From the NCBI GenBank assembly GCA_963663865.1, contig OY760686.1:1824001-1888000 (forward strand): a stretch of DNA of 64,000 nucleotides. The letters run 5' to 3'. Source of the DNA: Spirochaetota bacterium (lineage in GTDB: Bacteria; Spirochaetota; UBA4802; UBA5550). The notes beneath the pieces are model-generated. The model saw only the letters and a program-made list of their open reading frames with translations. It was not told the origin of the DNA and did not search any database. This document shows, in pieces, positions 5,995 through 20,174 of the stretch; position 1 is the first letter of the stretch; every line of letters starts with the position of its first letter. A program made the translations under genes and the position numbers.

Positions 5995-6774
5995 ATGGAT
6001 TTATCTACAATTATTGGCCTCGTCGCCGGTCTGGCGGCCCTCGCCATGGGTATTTTTATCGGCGGCGGTACTCTGCTGATGTTCGTTGACGCTCCGTCAG
6101 TAATGATTACCGTGGGAGGTTCATTCTGCGCCATGCTTGTTGCCCACAACATCCCCAAAATGGTCAAGATGTTCGGTGTGATGAGGTTTACGATATTCCC
6201 GCCGAAATACAATCTGAGCGAGCTGATCATCACGCTTGTCTCTTTTTCGGAAAAGGCAAGGCGCGAGGGACTTCTTGCTCTTGAGGATGACCTTGATGAG
6301 CTCGATGACCAGTTCATGAAGAAGGGGCTGCAGCTTGTAGTTGACGGAACCGATCCGGAACTGGTGCGATCAATAATGGAATCTGAGCTGGAGCAGACAC
6401 TTAACAGGCATGACGCCAGCAGGAAGCTTTTTGACGACTGGGCAGCGCTTGCGCCGTCATTCGGTATGATCGGTACCCTGCAGGGTCTTATCATGATGCT
6501 TGCGAACCTTGAAGACAGAGCGGCCCTTGGTCCGACTCTCTCCATTGCTCTTATGACAACGTTGTACGGAGCTATTATGGCGTATCTGCTTTTTTCGCCG
6601 ATGTCGTACAACCTTGAATCGCAGACCAATCATGAAGCGCTTAACAAGATGATAGTCATCGAGGGTGTTCTTTCAATTCAGTCAGGCGAGAATCCCCGAA
6701 TTGTAAAAGATAAGCTGATATCCTTCCTTCCTCCCGCGGACCGTGAGTCGATTTCCGAAGAGGTCGGAGAATAA
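5995..6774 (+). CDS. motA: Flagellar stator protein MotA/PomA
   Basis: MDLSTIIG, ARREGLLALE, APSFGMIGTLQGL, ALMTTLYG, IQSGENPR. Confidence 0.95.
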   Translation: MDLSTIIGLVAGLAALAMGIFIGGGTLLMFVDAPSVMITVGGSFCAMLVAHNIPKMVKMFGVMRFTIFPPKYNLSELIITLVSFSEKARREGLLALEDDLDELDDQFMKKGLQLVVDGTDPELVRSIMESELEQTLNRHDASRKLFDDWAALAPSFGMIGTLQGLIMMLANLEDRAALGPTLSIALMTTLYGAIMAYLLFSPMSYNLESQTNHEALNKMIVIEGVLSIQSGENPRIVKDKLISFLPPADRESISEEVGE

Positions 6775-7559
6775 TGGCGTTAAAGCGCAAAAAAAAGTGT
6801 CCAGTCGGTACGCCGGCGTGGATGGTCAGTATGGGAGACATGAACAACCTGCTCATGTGCTTCTTCATTATCATGATGGGCGATATAACAACAGTTACTC
6901 AGGAAGAGTTCCAGATGACTATCTCAGCGATTCAGGGCTCTCTCGGCGCCATGCCGGGGGGCGCGTCCCTTTCAAAGGGGAGGGTCATGGAGCTCGGTCA
7001 CAACATGATGACATTGCCCTCAACTGACAAGGGCCGGTCTCCCGGCAGAATGCTCCGAAAGGCCTATGAGGTCTTTAAGCCTGAGATTCAGTCAAAGTAT
7101 GTGAAGATACGCGAAGATGAACGAGGGCTCATCATTACACTGATGAGCGACCTTTTTTTTGAACCTGGAAGCGCAAGGCTTATGGACGGGGTAAGGCCTG
7201 TTCTGACAAAGGTCGCTAATCTTACTGCCGAGTTTCCGAATTTCGTCCGTATCGAGGGACATACCGACAAGGATAAACCTGTGGCCGCAAGGATGCGCGG
7301 AGGCTATGAAACCAACTGGGAGCTTTCTTCCGCGAGAAGCGTCAACGTTCTGCGGTTCATTGTTGAAGAGGAAAATGGAAACCCCAAACAGTTCTCAGCT
7401 GTCGCCTTCGGAGAGCACAGGCCGGTAGATGACAACAATACACCCGAGGGGCGCGCGGCCAATCGCAGGGTTGAAGTCGTAATACTTAAAGAAAAGTTTC
7501 TGAAAGAAGAAAAAGCCCGGGGCATCGACAGGCCTCTTCCGTCAGAAGAGTGGAGATGA
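6774..7559 (+). CDS. motB: Flagellar stator protein MotB (OmpA-like peptidoglycan-binding domain)
   Basis: PAWMVSMGDMNNLLMCFF TM with the conserved Asp; IEGHTD, NWELSSARS, NRRVEV; overlaps motA by 1 nt. Confidence 0.95.
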   Translation: MALKRKKKCPVGTPAWMVSMGDMNNLLMCFFIIMMGDITTVTQEEFQMTISAIQGSLGAMPGGASLSKGRVMELGHNMMTLPSTDKGRSPGRMLRKAYEVFKPEIQSKYVKIREDERGLIITLMSDLFFEPGSARLMDGVRPVLTKVANLTAEFPNFVRIEGHTDKDKPVAARMRGGYETNWELSSARSVNVLRFIVEEENGNPKQFSAVAFGEHRPVDDNNTPEGRAANRRVEVVILKEKFLKEEKARGIDRPLPSEEWR

Positions 7560-10973: not shown

Positions 10974-12200
10974 TTAGACTTTAGCACCGGACCTCCGGGC
11001 CGCTGAGCTTCCTGCAAGTAATCCGGTCGAGAATGCCGCCTGAAGATTGTATCCCCCCGTATATCCGTCAATATCCATTACTTCACCAGCGAAAAAGAGG
11101 CCCGGGACTTTGAGTGATTCCATTGTCTTTGGATTGATGTGCTCAATAGAGGCTCCGCCTCTGGTCGCCATTGCATGATTAAAGCCTTCGACAGCATGTA
11201 TTGTCACTTCAAAGGCTGTCAGGCTGTCAATAAGGGCCTTCCTGTTTTCTCTGGATATTTCCGAGGGATGGGTTGCCGGCTTAATGGAATGAATGTCAAG
11301 TACAACCAGAGCCAGGCGTTCTGGAAGGCCAAGACCCTGTATAAGACGTTTGATGTTCTTTGAGCCGGATGAGCGCGATTCAAGAATAAAACTTTCATTG
11401 ATAACCGAAGCTTCTTCAGAAACAAGAGAAAAGCGGAAAATGTCGCCGGGTAGAGCGAAACGGCTTATGTCAAGAACCCCCGGACCCGAAAGCCCTGTAT
11501 GAGTGAAGAGAATATCACCTGTATTCTTTGCCTCAAGCCGGCCTTTTCTGATAAGTTCGCATTTGGAAGATTTGACTGACAAACCGGCAAGTTCAGAAAT
11601 GTACGGTGACTTGATGATAAAGGGCGCAAGAGCTGGACGCTGCGCCACAGTCGGATGCCCGGCCATCTCTGTCAGCAGAGAGCCTGAACCGTCTGAGCCG
11701 GTTGCTGGATAGGATTTGCCTCCTGCTGCAATGATCAGATTTCCAGCCAGGTATTCTTCGCTGTCAGTGATTACGGTAAAACCGTCAGTTTGTCTATTAA
11801 TAGACAGAGCTGGACACTTTGTAAGGAGTTCAGCTCCGCTTTCATTGATTTCAGCAAGCAACATCCGCAGAATATCTGAGGATAACATAGAGGATGGGAA
11901 AACCTTTCCGTCTGGCCTGGTTAATGTTCTAATGCCTCTGGAGTTCAGAAGGGCAATCAATTTTTCTGGAGGAAAAGCTGAAAGCGCCGGTTTTAGAAAT
12001 CTGCCTGTACCGGGATACCTGTCTAAAAAACTGAAAATATCTCCTGTATGGGTTATGTTGCATTGGCCTGAACCGGAGATAAGAAGCTTTCTGCCGGGCA
12101 AAGCTTTTTTTTCGAGAATTAAGCAATCTGGCCCCGCATTCGCTGCCGCAAAGAGTCCAGCCGGGCCAGCTCCAATTATGATTGTTTTACAGGATTTCAT
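10974..12200 (-). CDS. BaiN/HI0933/YhiN family FAD-dependent oxidoreductase
   Basis: IIGAGPAGL, GRKLLISGSGQCNITH, GGKSYPATGSDG, FFAGEVMDIDGYTGGYNLQAAFSTG. Confidence 0.92.
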   Translation of the reverse strand: MKSCKTIIIGAGPAGLFAAANAGPDCLILEKKALPGRKLLISGSGQCNITHTGDIFSFLDRYPGTGRFLKPALSAFPPEKLIALLNSRGIRTLTRPDGKVFPSSMLSSDILRMLLAEINESGAELLTKCPALSINRQTDGFTVITDSEEYLAGNLIIAAGGKSYPATGSDGSGSLLTEMAGHPTVAQRPALAPFIIKSPYISELAGLSVKSSKCELIRKGRLEAKNTGDILFTHTGLSGPGVLDISRFALPGDIFRFSLVSEEASVINESFILESRSSGSKNIKRLIQGLGLPERLALVVLDIHSIKPATHPSEISRENRKALIDSLTAFEVTIHAVEGFNHAMATRGGASIEHINPKTMESLKVPGLFFAGEVMDIDGYTGGYNLQAAFSTGLLAGSSAARRSGAKV

Positions 12201-12306
12201 TTTCGCAGAATTAAGTGTAATTGGATTGCTGTCAAACAGAGTAATGCGAGGATTGACAAAAAAAGTGATGAAAAATTTTAATAAGGAAAAAAAATTCCAA
12301 TAATTA

Positions 12307-12353
12307 TTGACAAAAGGTGAAGGAAATTTTACCTTGTTAGAAGTAGCTAAGAA
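12307..12353 (+). promoter_or_regulatory. Sigma70-like promoter of feoA with adjacent palindromic operator
   Basis: TTGACA(12307)-N17-TACCTT, then TT-GTTAG-AAGTAG-CTAAG-AA (12334-12353). Confidence 0.6.
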
Positions 12354-12370
12354 TAAAAGAGGTATCTTTT

Positions 12371-12634
12371 ATGTTCGACGGCATTGTAAAACTGGAAAAC
12401 ATGGGATGTGCAAAATTGAATTTGGCTGATGCGCCCCGGGGTAAAATGCTAAAAGTAGGTCGATTTCAGGGCGGAAGGGCGTTTTATCAGAAGCTTTTAA
12501 GCCTTGGCTTTTATCCAGGAGCCGCCATCAAGGTGATTTCATCAAGCAAAAAGGGTCCTGTTATCGCTGAGATATGCGGATCAAGGGTGGTTATTGGTCA
12601 CTCCATGGCTGAAAGGATATCAATCGACTGTTAG
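12371..12634 (+). CDS. feoA: Ferrous iron transport protein FeoA
   Basis: QKLLSLGFYPGAAIKV...GPVIAEICGSRVVIG SH3-like motif; upstream of feoB. Confidence 0.9.
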   Translation: MFDGIVKLENMGCAKLNLADAPRGKMLKVGRFQGGRAFYQKLLSLGFYPGAAIKVISSSKKGPVIAEICGSRVVIGHSMAERISIDC

Positions 12635-12667
12635 GAAGAAAAAAGAGAAGTTTTTTTTGAAACAAAG

Positions 12668-12683
12668 GTTAGTTAAAACAAAC
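12668..12683 (+). promoter_or_regulatory. Second copy of the GTTAG-N6-CTAAC-like operator, in the feoA-feoB gap
   Basis: GTTAG-TTAAAA-CAAAC. Confidence 0.45.
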
Positions 12684-12840
12684 AAAGTTAGATGTCAGGT
12701 TTGTTCAGATGTTCTTTTAATCTATTGTTAAAAAGAATTGTGTGGAGTTCAAGCGTTTTTTTGAAGTTCATTCGTTATGAAGACGCCGAATTCAATAATT
12801 AAGTATCAATCGAACTAATGAATTTTAATGGAGTTGGTAA

Positions 12841-15150
12841 TTGGGCAAGAGTTTAAAGGTTGCAATAGCGGGAAATCCAAACTGCGGGAAAACAACCCTG
12901 TTTAATTCGCTGACAGGCGGAAGGCAGACCATAGGAAATTGGCCCGGCGTCACCGTAGAAAAAAAAGAGGGACGCTATTCCTATAAGGGCCGCGAGGTCG
13001 AACTTGTTGATCTTCCCGGAATATATTCACTTTCTGCTCATTCGGAGGACGAGAGGGCGGCTATGGACTACCTCAACTCTCATGATGCAGACCTTGTAAT
13101 CAATGTCGTTGATGCTCTCAACCTGGAAAGAAATCTTTACCTGACGGTACAGCTTGCCGAAATGAAGGTTCCCATGGTTGTTGTTCTTAACAGGATGGAT
13201 CTCGCTGAAAAGGACAAGATTTCAATAGACATCAATCACCTCTCTGAGCATCTCGGGGTTCCCGTGGTTGGCGCCAGTGCAATAAAAAAATACAGCGTTG
13301 AGTCAGTCAAGGATGCCATTGAGAGCTCGCTGAGCGGCCCAACGATTCCTTCTCTTGCTGTGGATTATCCTGATGAAATTCAGCGATATGTCAATAAGTG
13401 GAGCTCGGATTTGACCGGTGTTGCTGGTGAATTCGGAGCTAATCCCCGCTGGTTTGCGCTGAAGATGGTTGAGGGTGACAGGTGGGCGGTCAATGAGGCC
13501 GTCTCCTCCGGGCTGGTCGGCCGCGGCGATGTTGTCGCGGCGGTGCATGAGATCGAATCCTATCTTTACGAGTCTCCGGATATAGTTATCGCAGATTACC
13601 GCTACGGCTACATAAACAGCCTTGTCCGCGAGGTGGTTACGAGAAAGGTGGACCGCCAGAGAGTGTCTGACATAATTGACCGTGTTGTTTTGAACAGGGT
13701 TCTCGGTGTTCCAGTATTTCTTGTAGTTATGTATTTTGTCTTCTGGGCTGCGATCTCATTGGGCGGTGCGTTTATTGATTTTTTCGATATCGCTTTTGGT
13801 GCAGTATTTGTAGATGGATTTGGATATCTTCTCAGTCTTGCGGGAACGCCAGCATGGCTTAATGCTCTTCTTGCCGGAGGAATTGGCGCGGGCATTCAGA
13901 CTGTTGCAACTTTTGTTCCGATTATTTTTATGATGTTTTTTATGCTCTCCCTGCTTGAGGATTCAGGGTATATGGCCCGCATCGCGTTTGTCATGGACCG
14001 ATTCATGCGCTTCATAGGCCTGCCAGGGAAGTCCTTTGTACCGCTCCTCGTAGGTTACGGCTGTACTGTGCCTGCTGTTCTCGCTACAAGGACTCTTGAG
14101 TCCAGAAGGGACAGGCTTCTTACCATACTTATAGCGCCATTTATGTCCTGCGGAGCCAGGCTGCCTGTTTATGCTCTTTTCGCGTCTTCTTTTTTTCCCG
14201 GAAACGCGGGTCTTGTAGTTTTTTCACTTTATATCGCAGGGATTGCTCTCGCGGTTGTTTCAGGTCTTGTTTTGAAAAATACACTGTTTGTCGGCGAGCC
14301 TTCTCATTTTATTATGGAGCTTCCGGTTTATAACCCGCCGCGCTTTAAACACATTATTATACACACCTGGGTCAGGCTTAAGGAGTTTGTAGTGAGGGCG
14401 GGGCAGGTTATTGTAATTGGTGTAGCTGCTCTGTCCTTTTTCAACAGCCTCGGTACAGATGGTACTTTCGGCAATGAGGGAACTGAAAAGTCGGTTCTGG
14501 CTAATGCCGGCAAGGCGATAACGCCGGTTTTTTACTCTATGGGTGTTCAGAGTGAAAACTGGCCCGCGGCAGTGGCAATTTTCTCGGGAATATTCGCCAA
14601 GGAATCAGTAGTTGGAACATTGAATTCCCTTTATTCCCAGATTGATTACTCGTATGCAGCTTATGAATCTGCTGCGGGTGAGCCCGGGGCGGCAGGTGAC
14701 GCGGGGCCCGGTGTAGGATCAGCACTGATTGAAGCTATCTCAACCATTCCGGAGAATCTGAAGCAGACGTTTGTGGGGATAACCGATCCTCTCGGAATAC
14801 AAAAGGAGTTTTCCTCCGTGAACAATCCTTCAGTCTACGAGGATAGGGTGCACAGCTCACTGAGGCGGCACTTTAAAAATAACGCAGAGGTTTATGCCTA
14901 TCTTCTGTTTATCCTTATATACTTTCCCTGTATTGCCGCTCTGGGCGCGGTGAGTAAGGAAGCAGGATTAAAGATTGCAGTTCTTCAGGCCCTGTTTCTG
15001 ACTTTGCTGGGCTGGATTGCTGCGACTCTTTTCTATCAATTCGCCGCGGGCGGCAGTTTTATGTGGATTTCCATATCGGCAGCAATGCTTCTGCTGATGG
15101 TGCTCTCTCTCAGAATTATGAGACAAAAACCGGATGATGAAGCTGAATAA
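12841..15150 (+). CDS. feoB: Ferrous iron transporter FeoB
   Basis: G1 GNPNCGKT, G2 GNWPGVTVE, G3 DLPG, G4 NRMD; LEDSGYMAR, PFMSCGARLPVY, AKE, YFPCIA; TTG start with GGAG RBS. Confidence 0.97.
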   Translation: MGKSLKVAIAGNPNCGKTTLFNSLTGGRQTIGNWPGVTVEKKEGRYSYKGREVELVDLPGIYSLSAHSEDERAAMDYLNSHDADLVINVVDALNLERNLYLTVQLAEMKVPMVVVLNRMDLAEKDKISIDINHLSEHLGVPVVGASAIKKYSVESVKDAIESSLSGPTIPSLAVDYPDEIQRYVNKWSSDLTGVAGEFGANPRWFALKMVEGDRWAVNEAVSSGLVGRGDVVAAVHEIESYLYESPDIVIADYRYGYINSLVREVVTRKVDRQRVSDIIDRVVLNRVLGVPVFLVVMYFVFWAAISLGGAFIDFFDIAFGAVFVDGFGYLLSLAGTPAWLNALLAGGIGAGIQTVATFVPIIFMMFFMLSLLEDSGYMARIAFVMDRFMRFIGLPGKSFVPLLVGYGCTVPAVLATRTLESRRDRLLTILIAPFMSCGARLPVYALFASSFFPGNAGLVVFSLYIAGIALAVVSGLVLKNTLFVGEPSHFIMELPVYNPPRFKHIIIHTWVRLKEFVVRAGQVIVIGVAALSFFNSLGTDGTFGNEGTEKSVLANAGKAITPVFYSMGVQSENWPAAVAIFSGIFAKESVVGTLNSLYSQIDYSYAAYESAAGEPGAAGDAGPGVGSALIEAISTIPENLKQTFVGITDPLGIQKEFSSVNNPSVYEDRVHSSLRRHFKNNAEVYAYLLFILIYFPCIAALGAVSKEAGLKIAVLQALFLTLLGWIAATLFYQFAAGGSFMWISISAAMLLLMVLSLRIMRQKPDDEAE

Positions 15151-15185
15151 ATATTTTAATATCACTATATTTTTGGAGAAATGGT

Positions 15186-15959
15186 ATGCAGGAGTTAATC
15201 AATATAATTGAAAAAGGCGGAGCCGTTATGTGGCCAATCGCTTTTTGCGCCTTTGTTACTGTAGTAATCTTAATTGAACGTTATCTGTATTTTAGAGTGA
15301 CTCATGTGCGTTATGATGTTTTTCGTGACTGTCTTGTCGAGAGAATAAGCAAAAACGAAATATCTGAAATTGATTTCAGAAGGGAATATGTGCCTGCGGG
15401 TACAGAAAAAGGTGTTGTTTCCAGAGCTGTCATTCCTTTTAAAAACGCATACAGAAAGTTCTCAGTTCTTGTATGGAACGCCAGTCCGTTTACAAAAATA
15501 GCCTCAGAGTATTCAGCAAACGCAAAGGCTGATGAAAAAACAAGAAATGAGGCTCTGATGAGGACCGGATCACTGGAAATCGAAAAGATGGAAAAACACT
15601 TCAAGATTCTCTCAGCTATAAGCACAATAGCCCCGCTTCTTGGTCTGCTGGGTACAGTAATAGGTATACTTGAGAGCTTTCAGACCATACAGAGGATGGG
15701 CGGACAGGTTGACGTTAATTCACTGGCCGGCGGAATATGGGTTGCTCTTCTGACCACGGTCGCAGGTCTGATAGTCGCGATACCGGCCCAGCTTGGATAC
15801 ATTTATTTTGACAAGAAGGTTACTGAGCGGTCAAACCGTATGAACTATGTAACAACCTATCTGAACGAAAAGCTTTTTGCCCGGTCTGACAGCTCATATT
15901 CATCTGCCGGGGTTGTGTCATCAGTTCAGCGAGACGATTTTGAGCAGAGGCTGGTATGA
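15186..15959 (+). CDS. exbB: ExbB/TolQ/MotA proton channel family protein
   Basis: GGAVMWPI, APLLGLLGTVIG, LAGGIWVALLTTVAGLIVAIPA. Confidence 0.92.
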   Translation: MQELINIIEKGGAVMWPIAFCAFVTVVILIERYLYFRVTHVRYDVFRDCLVERISKNEISEIDFRREYVPAGTEKGVVSRAVIPFKNAYRKFSVLVWNASPFTKIASEYSANAKADEKTRNEALMRTGSLEIEKMEKHFKILSAISTIAPLLGLLGTVIGILESFQTIQRMGGQVDVNSLAGGIWVALLTTVAGLIVAIPAQLGYIYFDKKVTERSNRMNYVTTYLNEKLFARSDSSYSSAGVVSSVQRDDFEQRLV

Positions 15960-16357
15960 TGTTTGTCAGAAAACAAGCGGAGATGCCGTTTATCAATGTA
16001 GCTCCGCTTGTAGATATTATTTTTATACTTTTGATTTTCTTCATGTTGAGCTCGAATTTTATCAAACCGATGCTGATGATGGAGCTGCCCAAAGCATCCC
16101 ATGTTGAAGAGAAGCTTGAGAAGGTTGATATTATCGTGACAGCTGATTCTGCCGGCGCCCTTTACGTTAATCGAGTTCCTGTAGAAATAAACAATCTGCA
16201 GAATTTGCTGACTGAAAGAATGGCCGAGGTCGGGAAATATGATGTGATTTTCAGCGGAGACGGTTCAATCCCCTACGAGATGTTCGTTAAAATCCTTGAT
16301 ATCGCAAAAGAAGCCGGAGCGACAAGTTTTTCCGTGGAACACGACAAGGAGAAGTGA
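15956..16357 (+). CDS. exbD: ExbD/TolR biopolymer transport protein
   Basis: INVAPLVDIIFILLIFFML; overlaps exbB by 4 nt. Confidence 0.93.
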   Translation: MMFVRKQAEMPFINVAPLVDIIFILLIFFMLSSNFIKPMLMMELPKASHVEEKLEKVDIIVTADSAGALYVNRVPVEINNLQNLLTERMAEVGKYDVIFSGDGSIPYEMFVKILDIAKEAGATSFSVEHDKEK

Positions 16358-16361
16358 CTGA

Positions 16362-16907
16362 ATGGGATTTCTTGAGAGGTTTTACGGGCTGGTTGAACAG
16401 GGCAGGTTTTTCAGGATTCTTCAACTCATTTTGCTCTTTGCGCTGGTTGCGGCATATTTAATTTCAGGCATTACCTTCGGCGGGGCAGAGGTCTATAAGA
16501 ATGAACACAGCGAGGTAAAGAGGTACATCGTTAAGAAAGTTTCCAGGCTGCCTGAGAAGGCAGAGCAAAAGGATACTGAAACAGAAAAAAGGGAAGCCGA
16601 TACAATTTCCCCTGAGGATATCAAAAAAAGGTACATATCTTACGTCATATCAAAAATTGAACAGAATAAGATTTATCCGGTCTCTGAACAGCGTCTTAAT
16701 CATGAAGGTAATGTGACATTTATTCTGGAGATAAAAAGAAGCGGAGAAGTTGCGAGTTTTACTTATCTTAACCGATGCCGCTATTCCAATCTTAACAGCG
16801 CGGCTGTTGAGGCGGTCAGGAAATCGGCTCCGTTTGCCCGGATTCCGCCGCAGCTTGAGGAAGATGTGATAAGAATCAAGGTTACTATGAGCTATTTTTT
16901 AAGATAG
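16362..16907 (+). CDS. tonB: TonB-family energy transducer (short, no Pro-rich linker)
   Basis: N-terminal TM; TonB_C motifs IYP..EQRLNHEGNV, LNSAAVEAVRKSAPF; follows exbBD. Confidence 0.82.
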   Translation: MGFLERFYGLVEQGRFFRILQLILLFALVAAYLISGITFGGAEVYKNEHSEVKRYIVKKVSRLPEKAEQKDTETEKREADTISPEDIKKRYISYVISKIEQNKIYPVSEQRLNHEGNVTFILEIKRSGEVASFTYLNRCRYSNLNSAAVEAVRKSAPFARIPPQLEEDVIRIKVTMSYFLR

Positions 16908-17032
16908 CACTCAATGTTAATCCGCTTAAGAAGTCTGCTAAGGAGAAAATGATACTCTTTACTTAAGAACCAGCTTTTTACATCAACTCGCAATTCAGGG
17001 CAATAAAATTATTACCTAAAACTAAAATAAAT

Positions 17033-17080
17033 TTGACAAAAGGAATATCCTTTACAGTGTATGTTAGTTAAGATTAACAT
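17033..17080 (+). promoter_or_regulatory. -35 element and palindromic operator upstream of the TonB-dependent receptor
   Basis: TTGACA at 17033; ATGTTAG-TTAAGA-TTAACAT at 17061-17080. Confidence 0.6.
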
Positions 17081-17103
17081 ATTTAGTCCTATAGGAGAGA
17101 TTT

Positions 17104-19188
17104 ATGGAAACACTTTTTAGCAAAAAGGCATTGATAGTTTTATTTATGATAATGCCTTCTTTGTCTCTTTTTGCGTTTGAAGTTCAGGATTCAACATCTG
17201 GAGCCGTTCCTGTAGACAACCGTGAAGCTGAAAAGGTTGTCGTTACGGGAACAAAGACGGCAAAGCTTATGAGGACAGCACCGGTTAAAACCGAGGTTAT
17301 CAGCAGAGACAGGATTGAAGCCAAGGGCGCGGATACGGTTTTTGAAGCGTTAAAAGGCGAAGTCGGACTGATGGTAGAAAACAACTGTCAGAACTGCGCG
17401 GCTAATACCGTTGCCCTGAACGGTCTCGGAGGAAACTATACGCAGATTCTTATGAACGGATTTCCCTCAATTTCCTCGCTTGCGGGCGTTTACTTTCTTC
17501 AGCAGGCTCCGGCTTCAATGATTGACCGGATTGAGATAGTTAGAGGGGGCGGATCGGCCCTGTACGGTCCCGGCGCTATTGGCGGAGTAATTAACGTTAT
17601 CACGCAAAAGCCTAAAACAAACGGAGCAAATGTTGAATACAGGCAGGAGTTTATAGAAGGATTCAGCAATCCGACATGGGTTGCTAATGTAGATGCTTCC
17701 TACGTGAGCAACGACGGCAAAACCGGCCTGACAGTTTACGGAAGCAAGAAGGACCAGGACAGCTGGGACGGTAATGACGACAGCTATTCCGACCTTCCTG
17801 AACTTAAATCCACTTCAATAGGAGTTGGCGGATTTTTTAACATCATTGAGGGCATGGAGCTGACGTATAACGCCTTTGGAGTTGAGGAGTTCAGAAGAGG
17901 AGGCAACAGTTTTGATCTGGTGCCTGAGAAATCCGGAATCTGCGAGCAGATTGACTCAAACAGGGCTTCAGGTGATTTCAAGCTTTCGCATACGGTTAAT
18001 GATTTCTTTAATTATTCAGTTTATTACGGCTTTGCGAATACAGCACGAAAAACATATTATGGTCCGATGAACTCAGAGCCTTCAACAGACGAACAGTTGG
18101 CTGAAAATCTGCAGAACAACGGAACTACAGACAATCTGTTCCAGGTCGCGGGAACTGACTTCGGGTTTGCAATTGACAAAAACAATCTCATTCAGGCAGG
18201 ATTTGAATACTCTTACGATTCGGTTGTGGATAAAAACGCCAGTATCGAACGCGAGATAAATGATGAACATAATGATGTAGGAATGTACGCTCAATATAAC
18301 GCAAACTATGATTTGTTTGAGACCATCGTTGGTCTTAGGGCTGACAAGCACAGCAAGCTCGATGAATGGGTCTTCAGCCCCAGAGCAAGCGCTATACTCA
18401 AGCCGCTTAAAAGTCTGCGCTGGAGGGCCACTGTCTCGACTGGTTTTGTTGCTCCCCAGGTTTTCGATGAAGACTACCACATAGAGATTGGTCTTGCGGG
18501 TGATACTTCAACTCAGCATGTTATTGTTAACAGCGATGATCTCAAAGAAGAAAAATCAATCAGCTATTCTACCGACCTGGGATATAACATCAAGGCCGGT
18601 AAATTTGACTTTGACGTTAATGTTGGAGGATTTTATACCTCAATCGAGGACGCGATGTTCATCGACTATGACAATGTCGAGTCGACTAACTCAGCTGTTT
18701 ACTATTATAGAAGAAACGCTGAAGGTACAACCAGGGTTTACGGTGGAACCTTCGAGTTTATGGCTGAATACGGTAATATGATCAGCTGGTCAAACGCACT
18801 TACCGTTCAGGACGCGGATATGCCGGATGCGGGAGATCAGTACATGAACAAAATGCCCAATATTCACGGAGCTTCAATGCTGCAGTTGAAGTGGAAAAAA
18901 GCCGAGCTTGACCTCTCTGCCCAGTATATCGGTAAAACCAATGTCTTCAAGGAAGACGAAGGAGAAGAAGGAGAATTTGTCAAGACAGATGACTTCATTG
19001 TTTACGGCGTTAAGGTGAAATACGATCTGCCGTACGGCGGGAACAATGTTGCTTTATACGCTGGTATTGATAATATTACCAACGCCTATCAGGAGGACCT
19101 TGGGGTTGGTACCGACAGGCCTGCCGGATACCTCTACGGTCCAACAAGGCCGCGTACATATTACGCCGGATGTAAGCTTTCACTGTGA
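17104..19188 (+). CDS. TonB-dependent outer-membrane receptor with a CxxC motif in the plug domain
   Basis: Signal peptide; TonB box EKVVVTG; plug NNCQNC; IDRIEIVRGGGSALYGPGAIGGVINVIT; C-terminal GIDNITN...PRTYYAG. Confidence 0.93.
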   Translation: METLFSKKALIVLFMIMPSLSLFAFEVQDSTSGAVPVDNREAEKVVVTGTKTAKLMRTAPVKTEVISRDRIEAKGADTVFEALKGEVGLMVENNCQNCAANTVALNGLGGNYTQILMNGFPSISSLAGVYFLQQAPASMIDRIEIVRGGGSALYGPGAIGGVINVITQKPKTNGANVEYRQEFIEGFSNPTWVANVDASYVSNDGKTGLTVYGSKKDQDSWDGNDDSYSDLPELKSTSIGVGGFFNIIEGMELTYNAFGVEEFRRGGNSFDLVPEKSGICEQIDSNRASGDFKLSHTVNDFFNYSVYYGFANTARKTYYGPMNSEPSTDEQLAENLQNNGTTDNLFQVAGTDFGFAIDKNNLIQAGFEYSYDSVVDKNASIEREINDEHNDVGMYAQYNANYDLFETIVGLRADKHSKLDEWVFSPRASAILKPLKSLRWRATVSTGFVAPQVFDEDYHIEIGLAGDTSTQHVIVNSDDLKEEKSISYSTDLGYNIKAGKFDFDVNVGGFYTSIEDAMFIDYDNVESTNSAVYYYRRNAEGTTRVYGGTFEFMAEYGNMISWSNALTVQDADMPDAGDQYMNKMPNIHGASMLQLKWKKAELDLSAQYIGKTNVFKEDEGEEGEFVKTDDFIVYGVKVKYDLPYGGNNVALYAGIDNITNAYQEDLGVGTDRPAGYLYGPTRPRTYYAGCKLSL

Positions 19189-19206
19189 TCAAGTAACTTT
19201 AAACTC

Positions 19207-19236
19207 ATGACGGTGTCATAGAAACGACACCGTCAT
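19207..19236 (+). other. Perfect 11-bp stem-loop without a U-tract between the receptor and feoC
   Basis: ATGACGGTGTC-atagaaac-GACACCGTCAT. Confidence 0.7.
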
Positions 19237-19255
19237 AATACTGCCTGGAGGTTTT

Positions 19256-19486
19256 ATGTTATTATCTGATATGAAACAGCTTCTTATAAAAAACGGGCCG
19301 CTTTCGATCAGAGAGCTGTCAGTTCTGTTAAAGCAAGACGAAGCCGCAGTTGAGCATGGACTTAGAATGTGGCTTGATAAGGGCAGTGTTAAAAAGGAGT
19401 CAGTGCAAACTTCATGCAGCGGCTGTTCTTCCTGCGCGTCTGCCTCCCTTTGCTCAGATTCAGCTGTGTACAGATGGATTGCATGA
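19256..19486 (+). CDS. feoC: FeoC-like winged-helix Fe-S protein
   Basis: 76 aa with a wHTH-like N-terminus, W-x-x-KG, CSGCSSC-x5-C and a YRW end; GGAGG RBS. Confidence 0.82.
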   Translation: MLLSDMKQLLIKNGPLSIRELSVLLKQDEAAVEHGLRMWLDKGSVKKESVQTSCSGCSSCASASLCSDSAVYRWIA

Positions 19487-19682
19487 TTCCTTGAGCAGGC
19501 TGTTTGCTTACTGCCGAGAGCTTTATCCCCCCTCCAAAAACAAAGCACATTCCATCAAAATTTTAACTTGATTTTTATCCGATGTTTCAAAGATATTCAG
19601 GTGAAACGCATTTTCCCGGATGTGTAACTCGCATAATTTCCTTAAAATTATGTTGAATAATTATTATTTAAAGGTGTTTAAT

Positions 19683-20174
19683 TTGAAGCCATTAACATTA
19701 ACTGAAGAGAAGATAAACGCCGCTGTAGAAGAGCTCAGCCTTCTAAAAAACCCGCTTGATGAGGCGCTTGCCCTGCTGGACAGGGAGCAGCCATATACCG
19801 CTGACTATATCCACGGTGAAATGACTGATGAACTCACTGATTCAGAAAGGGCTGTTCTGGTGGATATAGCCTCGACCGTCTACTACATAATCAGCAAAAA
19901 TTTCACTGCCGTCAGGGCTACGCAGCAATCTCTTGAAAAGGCATATTCAGAGAATGTCGGCAGATTCGAAGAACTGTTCAGAACCTCAGATGAGGAGGAT
20001 TTCAGTATCGAGGTGTTTTTTGACTATCTTGTTTCCGGCAACTCTCAGGAGCCTCTGTTTCTTTTCGCGGCTGAACTCATAACTGAGGCGCTGGAAGATG
20101 AAGCTGATGATTTTACTGAATCTTTTTCTGTTATACTTGTCCACCTGAAGACAATCATTGATGCTGTTCTCTGA
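19683..20174 (+). CDS. Hypothetical acidic helical protein
   Basis: Open frame; probable TTG start at 19683 after AAGGTG; Glu/Asp-rich; no motif recognised. Confidence 0.6.
   Translation: MKPLTLTEEKINAAVEELSLLKNPLDEALALLDREQPYTADYIHGEMTDELTDSERAVLVDIASTVYYIISKNFTAVRATQQSLEKAYSENVGRFEELFRTSDEEDFSIEVFFDYLVSGNSQEPLFLFAAELITEALEDEADDFTESFSVILVHLKTIIDAVL

Follow-up and report, generated by a model that had tools for sequence, protein, structure and literature searches.

Background and closest described systems

FeoB imports Fe2+ at the expense of GTP, and the ExbBD–TonB motor energises receptors of the outer membrane. For the crossing of the outer membrane itself, reviews assume porins in the case of Fe2+ and call the route of Mn2+ unclear (PMC3852070). 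The CQNC-type family of TonB-dependent receptors (TBDRs) was named in 2026, and its Stenotrophomonas maltophilia member is an MntR-repressed candidate Mn2+ receptor, the promoter of which is derepressed in an mntR mutant, active only when Mn and Fe are limiting together, and shut off by 80 nM Mn2+; the Mn2+ site of that receptor is a modelled one (PMC13217887). Here we describe a cluster, feoA-feoB-exbB-exbD-tonB-receptor-feoC, at positions 12371–19486 of a 64,000-nucleotide stretch (the window) of contig OY760686.1 from a Spirochaetota bacterium, in which a CQNC-type receptor and a complete set of motor genes are embedded among feo genes. We assign a probability of roughly 55% to the reading that the receptor supplies FeoB, by way of the periplasm, with its presumed substrate, Fe2+ (or Mn2+) in free or weakly bound form.

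The closest described system is the S. maltophilia receptor with its periplasmic thioredoxin-fold protein (TBDR–pTFP; V8P27_002357/002358), which shares with the cluster the CQNC motif of the plug, the plug-and-barrel architecture and a divalent-metal importer nearby, mntH in that genome (PMC13217887). Control by a DtxR-family repressor, predicted for the cluster, would also be common to both (PMC13217887). By comparison, the cluster pairs the receptor with FeoABC and encodes a dedicated ExbBD–TonB, and feoC takes the place downstream of the receptor at which the published module has its periplasmic thioredoxin-fold gene. The operators differ as well, the candidate ones of the cluster being of the TTAG-N6-CTAA type and that of S. 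maltophilia of the ATAGC-N4-GCTAT type. The published account calls the family restricted, whereas the CQNC relatives among the matches listed here span many phyla, and its main text contains no match for 'feo' or 'bacteroid' (PMC13217887).

Transfer from a TonB-dependent receptor to FeoB without an ABC transporter is likewise described for ferric-citrate uptake by FecA/FciA and Feo in Pseudomonas aeruginosa, Leptospira biflexa, Helicobacter pylori and S. maltophilia, but there the receptor belongs to another family, the genes are unlinked and the cargo is a ferric chelate (PMC9047314). In layout, the cluster is also like the predicted Desulfovibrio operon fepA-feoA2-feoB2, tabulated in 2004, which places an outer membrane receptor in one unit with feoAB; this operon is Fur-regulated, and its tabulated entry lists neither motor genes nor feoC (PMC545781). 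In Porphyromonas gingivalis, FeoB2 (FB2) is controlled by PgMntR, a repressor of the DtxR family whose site mixes Asp and Cys, and FB2 shows that a FeoB can serve Mn; the available text of that study mentions no outer membrane receptor and holds no match for 'TonB' (PMC4805248). MnoT/TseM of Burkholderia thailandensis mediates TonB-dependent Mn2+ uptake, as the cluster may do, but needs a secreted Mn-binding protein.

The first-pass annotation put the locus forward as a candidate for an undescribed system. This is too strong, given that a receptor-to-FeoB relay is in print (PMC9047314), fepA-feoA2-feoB2 was tabulated two decades ago (PMC545781) and the receptor family has been named. What is new here is the coupling of the CQNC receptor family to Feo. 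A feo cluster with its own motor and receptor, a link between CQNC receptors and Feo, and a TTAG-N6-CTAA operator for the family were not found in the literature searched, which leaves most subscription journals outside and is not proof of absence; for CQNC together with TonB, the same literature yielded only the S. maltophilia study.

Gene content of the cluster

The seven open reading frames (ORFs) are intact, lie on the + strand, and each scores above its Pfam gathering cut-off, which bears out the identities proposed for them at first pass:

feoA, 12371–12634, + strand: 87 amino acids (aa); Pfam FeoA 50.8 bits against a cut-off of 23
feoB, 12841–15150, + strand: 769 aa; GTPase motifs, gate domains and membrane Cys 408, 437 and 697
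exbB, 15186–15959, + strand: 257 aa; three predicted transmembrane (TM) helices; Pfam match
exbD, 15956–16357, + strand: 133 aa; a single TM helix with Asp20; Pfam match
tonB, 16362–16907, + strand: 181 aa, short; TM anchor 19–37, 65-aa linker and C-terminal domain
receptor, 17104–19188, + strand: 694 aa; CQNC-type TonB-dependent receptor
feoC, 19256–19486, + strand: 76 aa; Pfam FeoC 40 against 21 bits; Cys 54, 57, 60 and 66

The motor genes and the receptor sit between feoB and feoC on the same strand, as had been noticed before, and feoC is separated from feoB by 4.1 kb and four genes. FeoB exceeds the NCBIfam FeoB equivalog cut-offs (PRK09554, 725 against 683 bits; TIGR00437, 640 against 316), and the four Cys of FeoC are candidate Fe–S ligands. 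A Pfam scan confirmed that genes for a binding protein, an ABC permease, or siderophore or heme functions are found neither in the cluster nor among the 43 window ORFs scanned (mostly of at least 150 aa); a reductase gene is likewise not found by Pfam in the cluster. A plausible ribosome-binding site precedes each of the seven genes. The GC and GC3 of the cluster agree with those of the other window genes, and a recent foreign insertion was rejected on this match in base composition. For the receptor, FeoB and ExbB alike, the nearest named homologues belong to Spirochaetota assemblies. In a sister genome, FeoB (97% identity) and ExbB (93%) lie on contigs of the same size, 1,388,793 bp, which argues against a misassembly of the feoB–exbB junction.

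We assign the motor to the Ton rather than the Tol system because the TonB C-terminal domain is present (Pfam TonB_C, 32.6 against 24.6; TIGR01352, 35.7 against 27.1) and a receptor adjoins; a Tol–Pal reading was rejected on the same two grounds and on the absence of tolB and pal. The three TM helices of ExbB, the TM Asp of ExbD, and the anchor and C-terminal domain of TonB together make up a Ton-type motor. ExbB and ExbD stay below the NCBIfam equivalog cut-offs for ExbB/TolQ and ExbD/TolR, and ExbB is a member of a distinct clade with 27 relatives at 42–63% identity. The TonB of Escherichia coli has a Pro-rich periplasmic spacer and a His in its TM segment. The TonB of the cluster is atypical in both respects, with two Pro in its 65-aa linker and a TM segment (19–37) free of His.

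The receptor and its family

The receptor opens with a signal-peptide-like N-terminus, carries a TonB-box-like EKVVVTG at 43–49 and a barrel loop D455-E-D-Y-H459, and shows no N-terminal signalling domain. Its predicted structure is a plug and barrel (mean predicted local distance difference test score 83.9), in which the C95-Q-N-C98 loop is placed between plug strands 89–93 and 101–105, so that the motif defining the family stands in the plug. The receptor groups with 113 relatives in a single 114-member clade (support 0.999 in FastTree), apart from nine other TonB receptors of the same loci. The residues C95, C98, Y130, D457 and H459 are 99–100% conserved within this clade and absent outside it, and E281 is conserved in 100% inside as compared with 11% outside; these six are candidate ligand residues. 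CQNC is present in 111 of the best 150 representatives at 50% clustering, some form of CxxC in 146 and the EDxH motif in 130; clustered at 50% identity, the family amounts to 379 groups with E values up to 1e-30.

A Luteimonas receptor falls within the clade (30% identity over 703 columns, E 4e-90), and the layout of its locus (L069) matches the published S. maltophilia arrangement: an adjacent mntR scores above its equivalog cut-off (241 against 153), an ATATAGC-N4-GCTATAT palindrome lies upstream and a CAPC thioredoxin gene lies downstream. With Luteimonas standing in for S. maltophilia, the receptor is monophyletic with the Lysobacterales members, although the narrower clade of the published study may exclude the Spirochaetota branch.

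Fold (Foldseek) and sequence searches of the PDB gave Cir, PirA, BtuB and FepA as top matches, a generic likeness at no more than 18% identity; these searches returned no solved member of the family, and the ESM Atlas gave only generic TonB-receptor clusters. The receptor missed the curated NCBIfam cut-offs for heme (TIGR01785, 104.6 against 316.85), siderophore (TIGR01783, 104.1 against 223.5), FecA (NF041676, 38.9 against 1100) and BtuB (TIGR01779, 91.9 against 599.7) receptors, which speaks for the first-pass interpretation.

Neighbourhoods of receptor relatives

Our genome scan covered 80 loci among the matches listed (median 20 kb), and gene-order conservation in close relatives is poorly sampled because these loci are mostly from Bacteroidota, with a single one from Spirochaetota. 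Of the neighbours, 86 of the 117 listed and five added ones were scanned over their first 450 residues, the remaining 31 having been scanned otherwise, clustered, or set aside as small or spurious. The survey for feoB with exbBD/tonB, receptor and feoC, suggested as a check at first pass, did not bear out the arrangement: the seven-gene order occurs at none of the 80 loci, and profile searches found homologues of ExbD, TonB and FeoC at none of them and of ExbB at one.

The CQNC relatives instead adjoin DtxR/MntR regulators and divalent-metal importers rather than ABC systems for chelates. A DtxR/MntR gene is present at 11 loci (from Bacteroidota, Acidobacteriota, a gammaproteobacterium and a Leptospirales metagenome-assembled genome) and as one further fragment, a divalent-metal importer at 14 (ZIP at 10, MntH at 1, a SitABC-type ABC system at 1, feo genes at 4), and one or the other at 17. 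In the nearest genomic relative listed (59% identity, the Leptospirales genome, L001), the order runs receptor-dtxR-feoA up to the contig end, and the regulator has a mixed Asp/Cys site like that of P. gingivalis MntR, which binds both Fe and Mn. On a distant branch of the tree, locus L023 has the order fur-feoA-feoB-small ORFs-receptor, in which no gap exceeds 101 bp, and a flavodoxin gene lies upstream. At two further loci (L030, L070), feoAB lie nearby, with opposite-strand genes between feoAB and the receptor.

Five of the 26 close receptor relatives lie on contigs identical in size to those of five of the 27 close ExbB relatives (control, 1 in 41,781 pairs), which argues for a module in which motor and receptor move together. 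This module appears to belong to Spirochaetota and to be joined to this type of Feo in some lineages only. A plasmid search returned 11 Bacteroidota records, and in the five examined, one of them without annotation, no feo gene or regulator is annotated.

Several other genes recur beside the receptor. At 26 of the 80 loci (for example L023:9207–9572, L012:9091–9447 and L046:8488–8853), a small His-rich ORF of about 115–125 aa lies 5' of the receptor; the members scanned matched no credible Pfam or NCBIfam family, and the loci are mostly of the Bacteroidales type and devoid of the operator box. Its product is a candidate metal-binding partner or sensor. In one clade, a 92-aa CxxCH ORF with no Pfam match takes the 5' position (L002:1039–1323, L003:9261–9539, L005:3201–3482, L006:3249–3527), and L006 has a second copy 5' of a CusCBA-like efflux set. 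Genes for CusA/CzcA-type RND efflux adjoin the receptor at L006, L045, L047, L051, L052, L065 and L085, suggesting that uptake and efflux may be paired for the same metal. A Fe/Mn superoxide dismutase gene is found near or directly 3' of the receptor at three loci (L059:12768–13472, L063:11945–12799, L025:1145–1720). In Flavobacteriia (L030, L038, L045, L047, L071), mntR-ZIP stands opposite the CQNC receptor in a conserved divergon with a strong TTTTTAGA-N4-TCTAAAAA operator, which offers a tractable place for testing the family.

Operator-like boxes and transcription units

The first-pass annotation called the cluster a Feo operon, which holds for the gene order and less well for transcription. 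feoB and the motor genes are tightly packed (feoB–exbB 35 bp, exbB–exbD −4, exbD–tonB 4), whereas the feoA–feoB and tonB–receptor gaps measure 206 and 196 bp, respectively. The features of these spacers and of the flanking gaps are:

feoA leader, 12307–12350, + strand: TTGACA-containing promoter-like element, then an exact TTAG-N6-CTAA box at 12337–12350
operator-like box in the feoA–feoB spacer, 12669–12682, + strand: TTAG-N6-CAAA, one mismatch, weaker
receptor leader, 17012–17077, + strand: boxes at 17012–17025 and 17064–17077, one mismatch each, flanking the second TTGACAAAAGG
hairpin in the receptor–feoC gap, 19207–19236, + strand: perfect 11-bp hairpin, no U-tract; −19.9 kcal/mol, z −3.8, none of 200 shuffles as stable

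The 11-mer TTGACAAAAGG is common to the feoA and receptor leaders (12307 and 17033) and has only these two copies in the window. Several promoters are likely because boxes occupy the two long gaps, the leaders share this 11-mer and a hairpin precedes feoC. The cluster is therefore best read, from its sequence, as a multi-promoter unit under one putative DtxR-family repressor. The hairpin is a possible mRNA-stability or attenuation element and could lower the expression of feoC relative to the receptor. A scan for sigma-70 promoters and terminators was uninformative (17 sites against 12.0 in shuffles), and an Rfam scan of 12150–19700 gave nothing credible, including no riboswitch.

TTAG-N6-CTAA has the geometry of the single-dimer IdeR/DtxR site, the 14-bp TTAGGNNNNCCTAA (PMC8464063), and the feoA-leader box is a candidate DtxR-family operator. 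The motif occurs in exact form 5' of 18 of 74 receptor relatives, as compared with 0–1 for spacings of N3–5 or N7–10 and a mean of 0.65 (maximum 4) in shuffles; the 74 are the 80 loci less L069, removed by the ORF filter, and five with too little upstream DNA. Among loci with an adjoining long-form DtxR gene, eight of the nine tested contain it. We built a profile solely from the sites of the relatives and applied it to the whole window. Four of its five matches of at least 6 bits fell in the three spacers before feoA, feoB and the receptor (572 bp in all), which took the first places among the 22 intergenic regions. The box of the feoA leader scored 10.4, a value attained in 20 of 2000 shuffles, and the two receptor-leader boxes 11.0 and 9.9 (the best reached by 31 of 2000). 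The feoA–feoB spacer box, at 6.4 (107 of 2000), is weak alone, and the same TTAG-N6-CAAA variant stands 5' of feoA in L001.

A proposed two-membrane pathway into FeoB

A pathway across two membranes into FeoB, as proposed at first pass, is favoured by the missed cut-offs for heme, siderophore, B12 and FecA receptors, by the family-specific Cys, Asp, His and Glu residues, by membership of a family whose one studied member is MntR-repressed and responds only to joint Mn and Fe starvation, and by the divalent-metal neighbours; the seven-gene order, however, did not recur at the 80 loci sampled. In such a pathway, low cytoplasmic Fe2+ or Mn2+ would cause a DtxR-family repressor, presumably encoded elsewhere, to leave the feoA, feoB and receptor boxes. 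The receptor would then bind free or weakly chelated metal through the Cys of the plug CQNC and the conserved Asp, His and Glu, as conservation and the published model of a relative suggest. The cluster's own ExbB–ExbD–short-TonB motor, whose genes are present and whose pairing with this receptor seems probable, would open the plug, and FeoB with FeoA and the Cys4 FeoC would move the ion into the cytoplasm in a GTP-driven step, as is established for the family.

As to cargo, the Feo context and the fur and flavodoxin genes of L023 would favour iron, whereas S. maltophilia and the MntH/MntR loci would favour manganese; within a pathway feeding FeoB we weigh Fe2+ at about 55%, Mn2+ at about 30% and both at about 15%. 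Across lineages, CQNC receptors appear to be an outer membrane stage that is paired with whichever importer is in use, namely MntH, ZIP, a SitABC-type ABC system or Feo. A bolder extension, which we offer tentatively and consider doubtful, is that CQNC receptors are widespread TonB-energised transporters of unchelated Fe2+ or Mn2+ and that the cluster is a self-contained two-membrane Fe2+ pathway driven by proton-motive force and GTP.

The bacterium may accordingly pump Fe2+ or Mn2+ across both membranes and not rely on passive pores, and a TonB-energised two-membrane Fe2+ pathway, if true, would overturn the default of porin-only Fe2+ supply to Feo. With a candidate receptor, motor and inner membrane importer packed into 7.1 kb, the crossing of the outer membrane by a scarce metal becomes testable on a single DNA fragment, and energised uptake of unchelated Fe2+ or Mn2+ becomes directly testable. 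In addition, the survey widens the CQNC family from 'restricted' to many phyla, proposes an operator for its Bacteroidota and Spirochaetota members, and points to six residues as candidate ligands.

Several points weigh against a receptor that hands Fe2+ or Mn2+ to FeoB. The sole direct evidence on metal, from S. maltophilia, points to Mn while the Feo context points to Fe, and deletion of the S. maltophilia receptor gave no growth phenotype (PMC13217887); the papers found contain no transport or binding data for any CQNC receptor. Mn(II) is not usually ligated by Cys (PMC4805248), and the surface CxxC could form a disulfide instead. The mixed Asp/Cys site predicted for the L001 repressor does not decide between Fe and Mn. 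Regarding regulation, no DtxR or Fur gene is found in the 64-kb window, the search pattern was chosen after the motif had been noticed there, so that the window match was not blind, and most of the 18 box-bearing loci are related Bacteroidota and thus do not count as 18 independent events. Regarding gene context, neither a regulator nor an importer is in view at 63 of the 80 loci, and feo genes are linked to the receptor in the same direction at only two. Furthermore, no close receptor or ExbB relative shares a contig size with any of the 119 closest FeoBs, even though 20 of the 26 and 17 of the 27 contigs are long enough, and the module may thus lack this type of FeoB as a neighbour in the greater part of the Spirochaetota clade.

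Alternative explanations

The best surviving alternative, which we regard as unlikely, is that the cargo of the receptor is a ferric chelate, either a xenosiderophore or a citrate-like compound, from which iron is freed or reduced in the periplasm, possibly by way of the CxxC, and enters through FeoB. This would follow the logic of FecA/FciA plus Feo with a receptor of another family; such a relay is on record for the four species with ferric-citrate uptake named above (PMC9047314), and one has been proposed in Sphingobium (PMC7376174). The top PDB matches, the thioredoxin-fold genes 3' of the receptor at several listed loci, and the fur and flavodoxin genes of L023 could be read in the same sense. 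However, the PDB likeness is generic, the FecA and siderophore models are missed by wide margins, and the cluster has no reductase gene. Repression by 80 nM Mn2+ in S. maltophilia (PMC13217887) and the linkage to MntH, ZIP and SitABC fit a divalent ion better.

Next in likelihood, and also improbable, is co-regulation without hand-over, in which an exbBD-tonB-receptor module landed in feoABC under the same repressor, its cargo, probably Mn2+, uses another importer, and Feo takes Fe2+ delivered by porins. The receptor's own promoter-like leader and boxes, the lack of conservation of the seven-gene order, and a module that travels with ExbB in relatives but shows no contig-size match to the closest FeoBs all speak for this explanation. 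Against it, the 35 bp between feoB and exbB are not a promoter-sized gap, feoC lies 3' of the receptor, and the same-direction link between feo and receptor recurs in two further lineages, one of them on a distant branch. Uptake of heme, a corrinoid or another organic cofactor handled by unlinked genes is very improbable: the invariant H459 lies between the FxAP and N-x-x-L motifs, in the loop that we take to be the place where heme receptors carry their His ligand, TIGR01785 is the top NCBIfam match, and L003 and L009 contain a FecCD-type ABC set and CbiX genes, respectively, but the heme and B12 cut-offs are missed widely, no riboswitch was found in 12150–19700, no gene for the utilisation of heme or B12 is found among the 91 immediate neighbours scanned, and both L003 and L009 hold other TonB receptors nearer to the FecCD-type or CbiX genes. 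In comparison with these alternatives, delivery of a free or weakly bound divalent ion to FeoB remains our preferred reading.

Other genes in the window

Downstream of feoC, at 19620–20174, lies a 184-aa acidic ORF that has no Pfam or NCBIfam match and no homologue at the 80 listed loci; it is probably unrelated to the cluster, and no operator box precedes it. An isolated motA/motB-like stator pair is located at 5995–7559, away from other flagellar genes. At 1–2394 on the minus strand, NuoE-like, ferredoxin-like and NuoF-like genes resemble an electron-bifurcating hydrogenase or dehydrogenase module, which weakly hints that the host may be an anaerobe.

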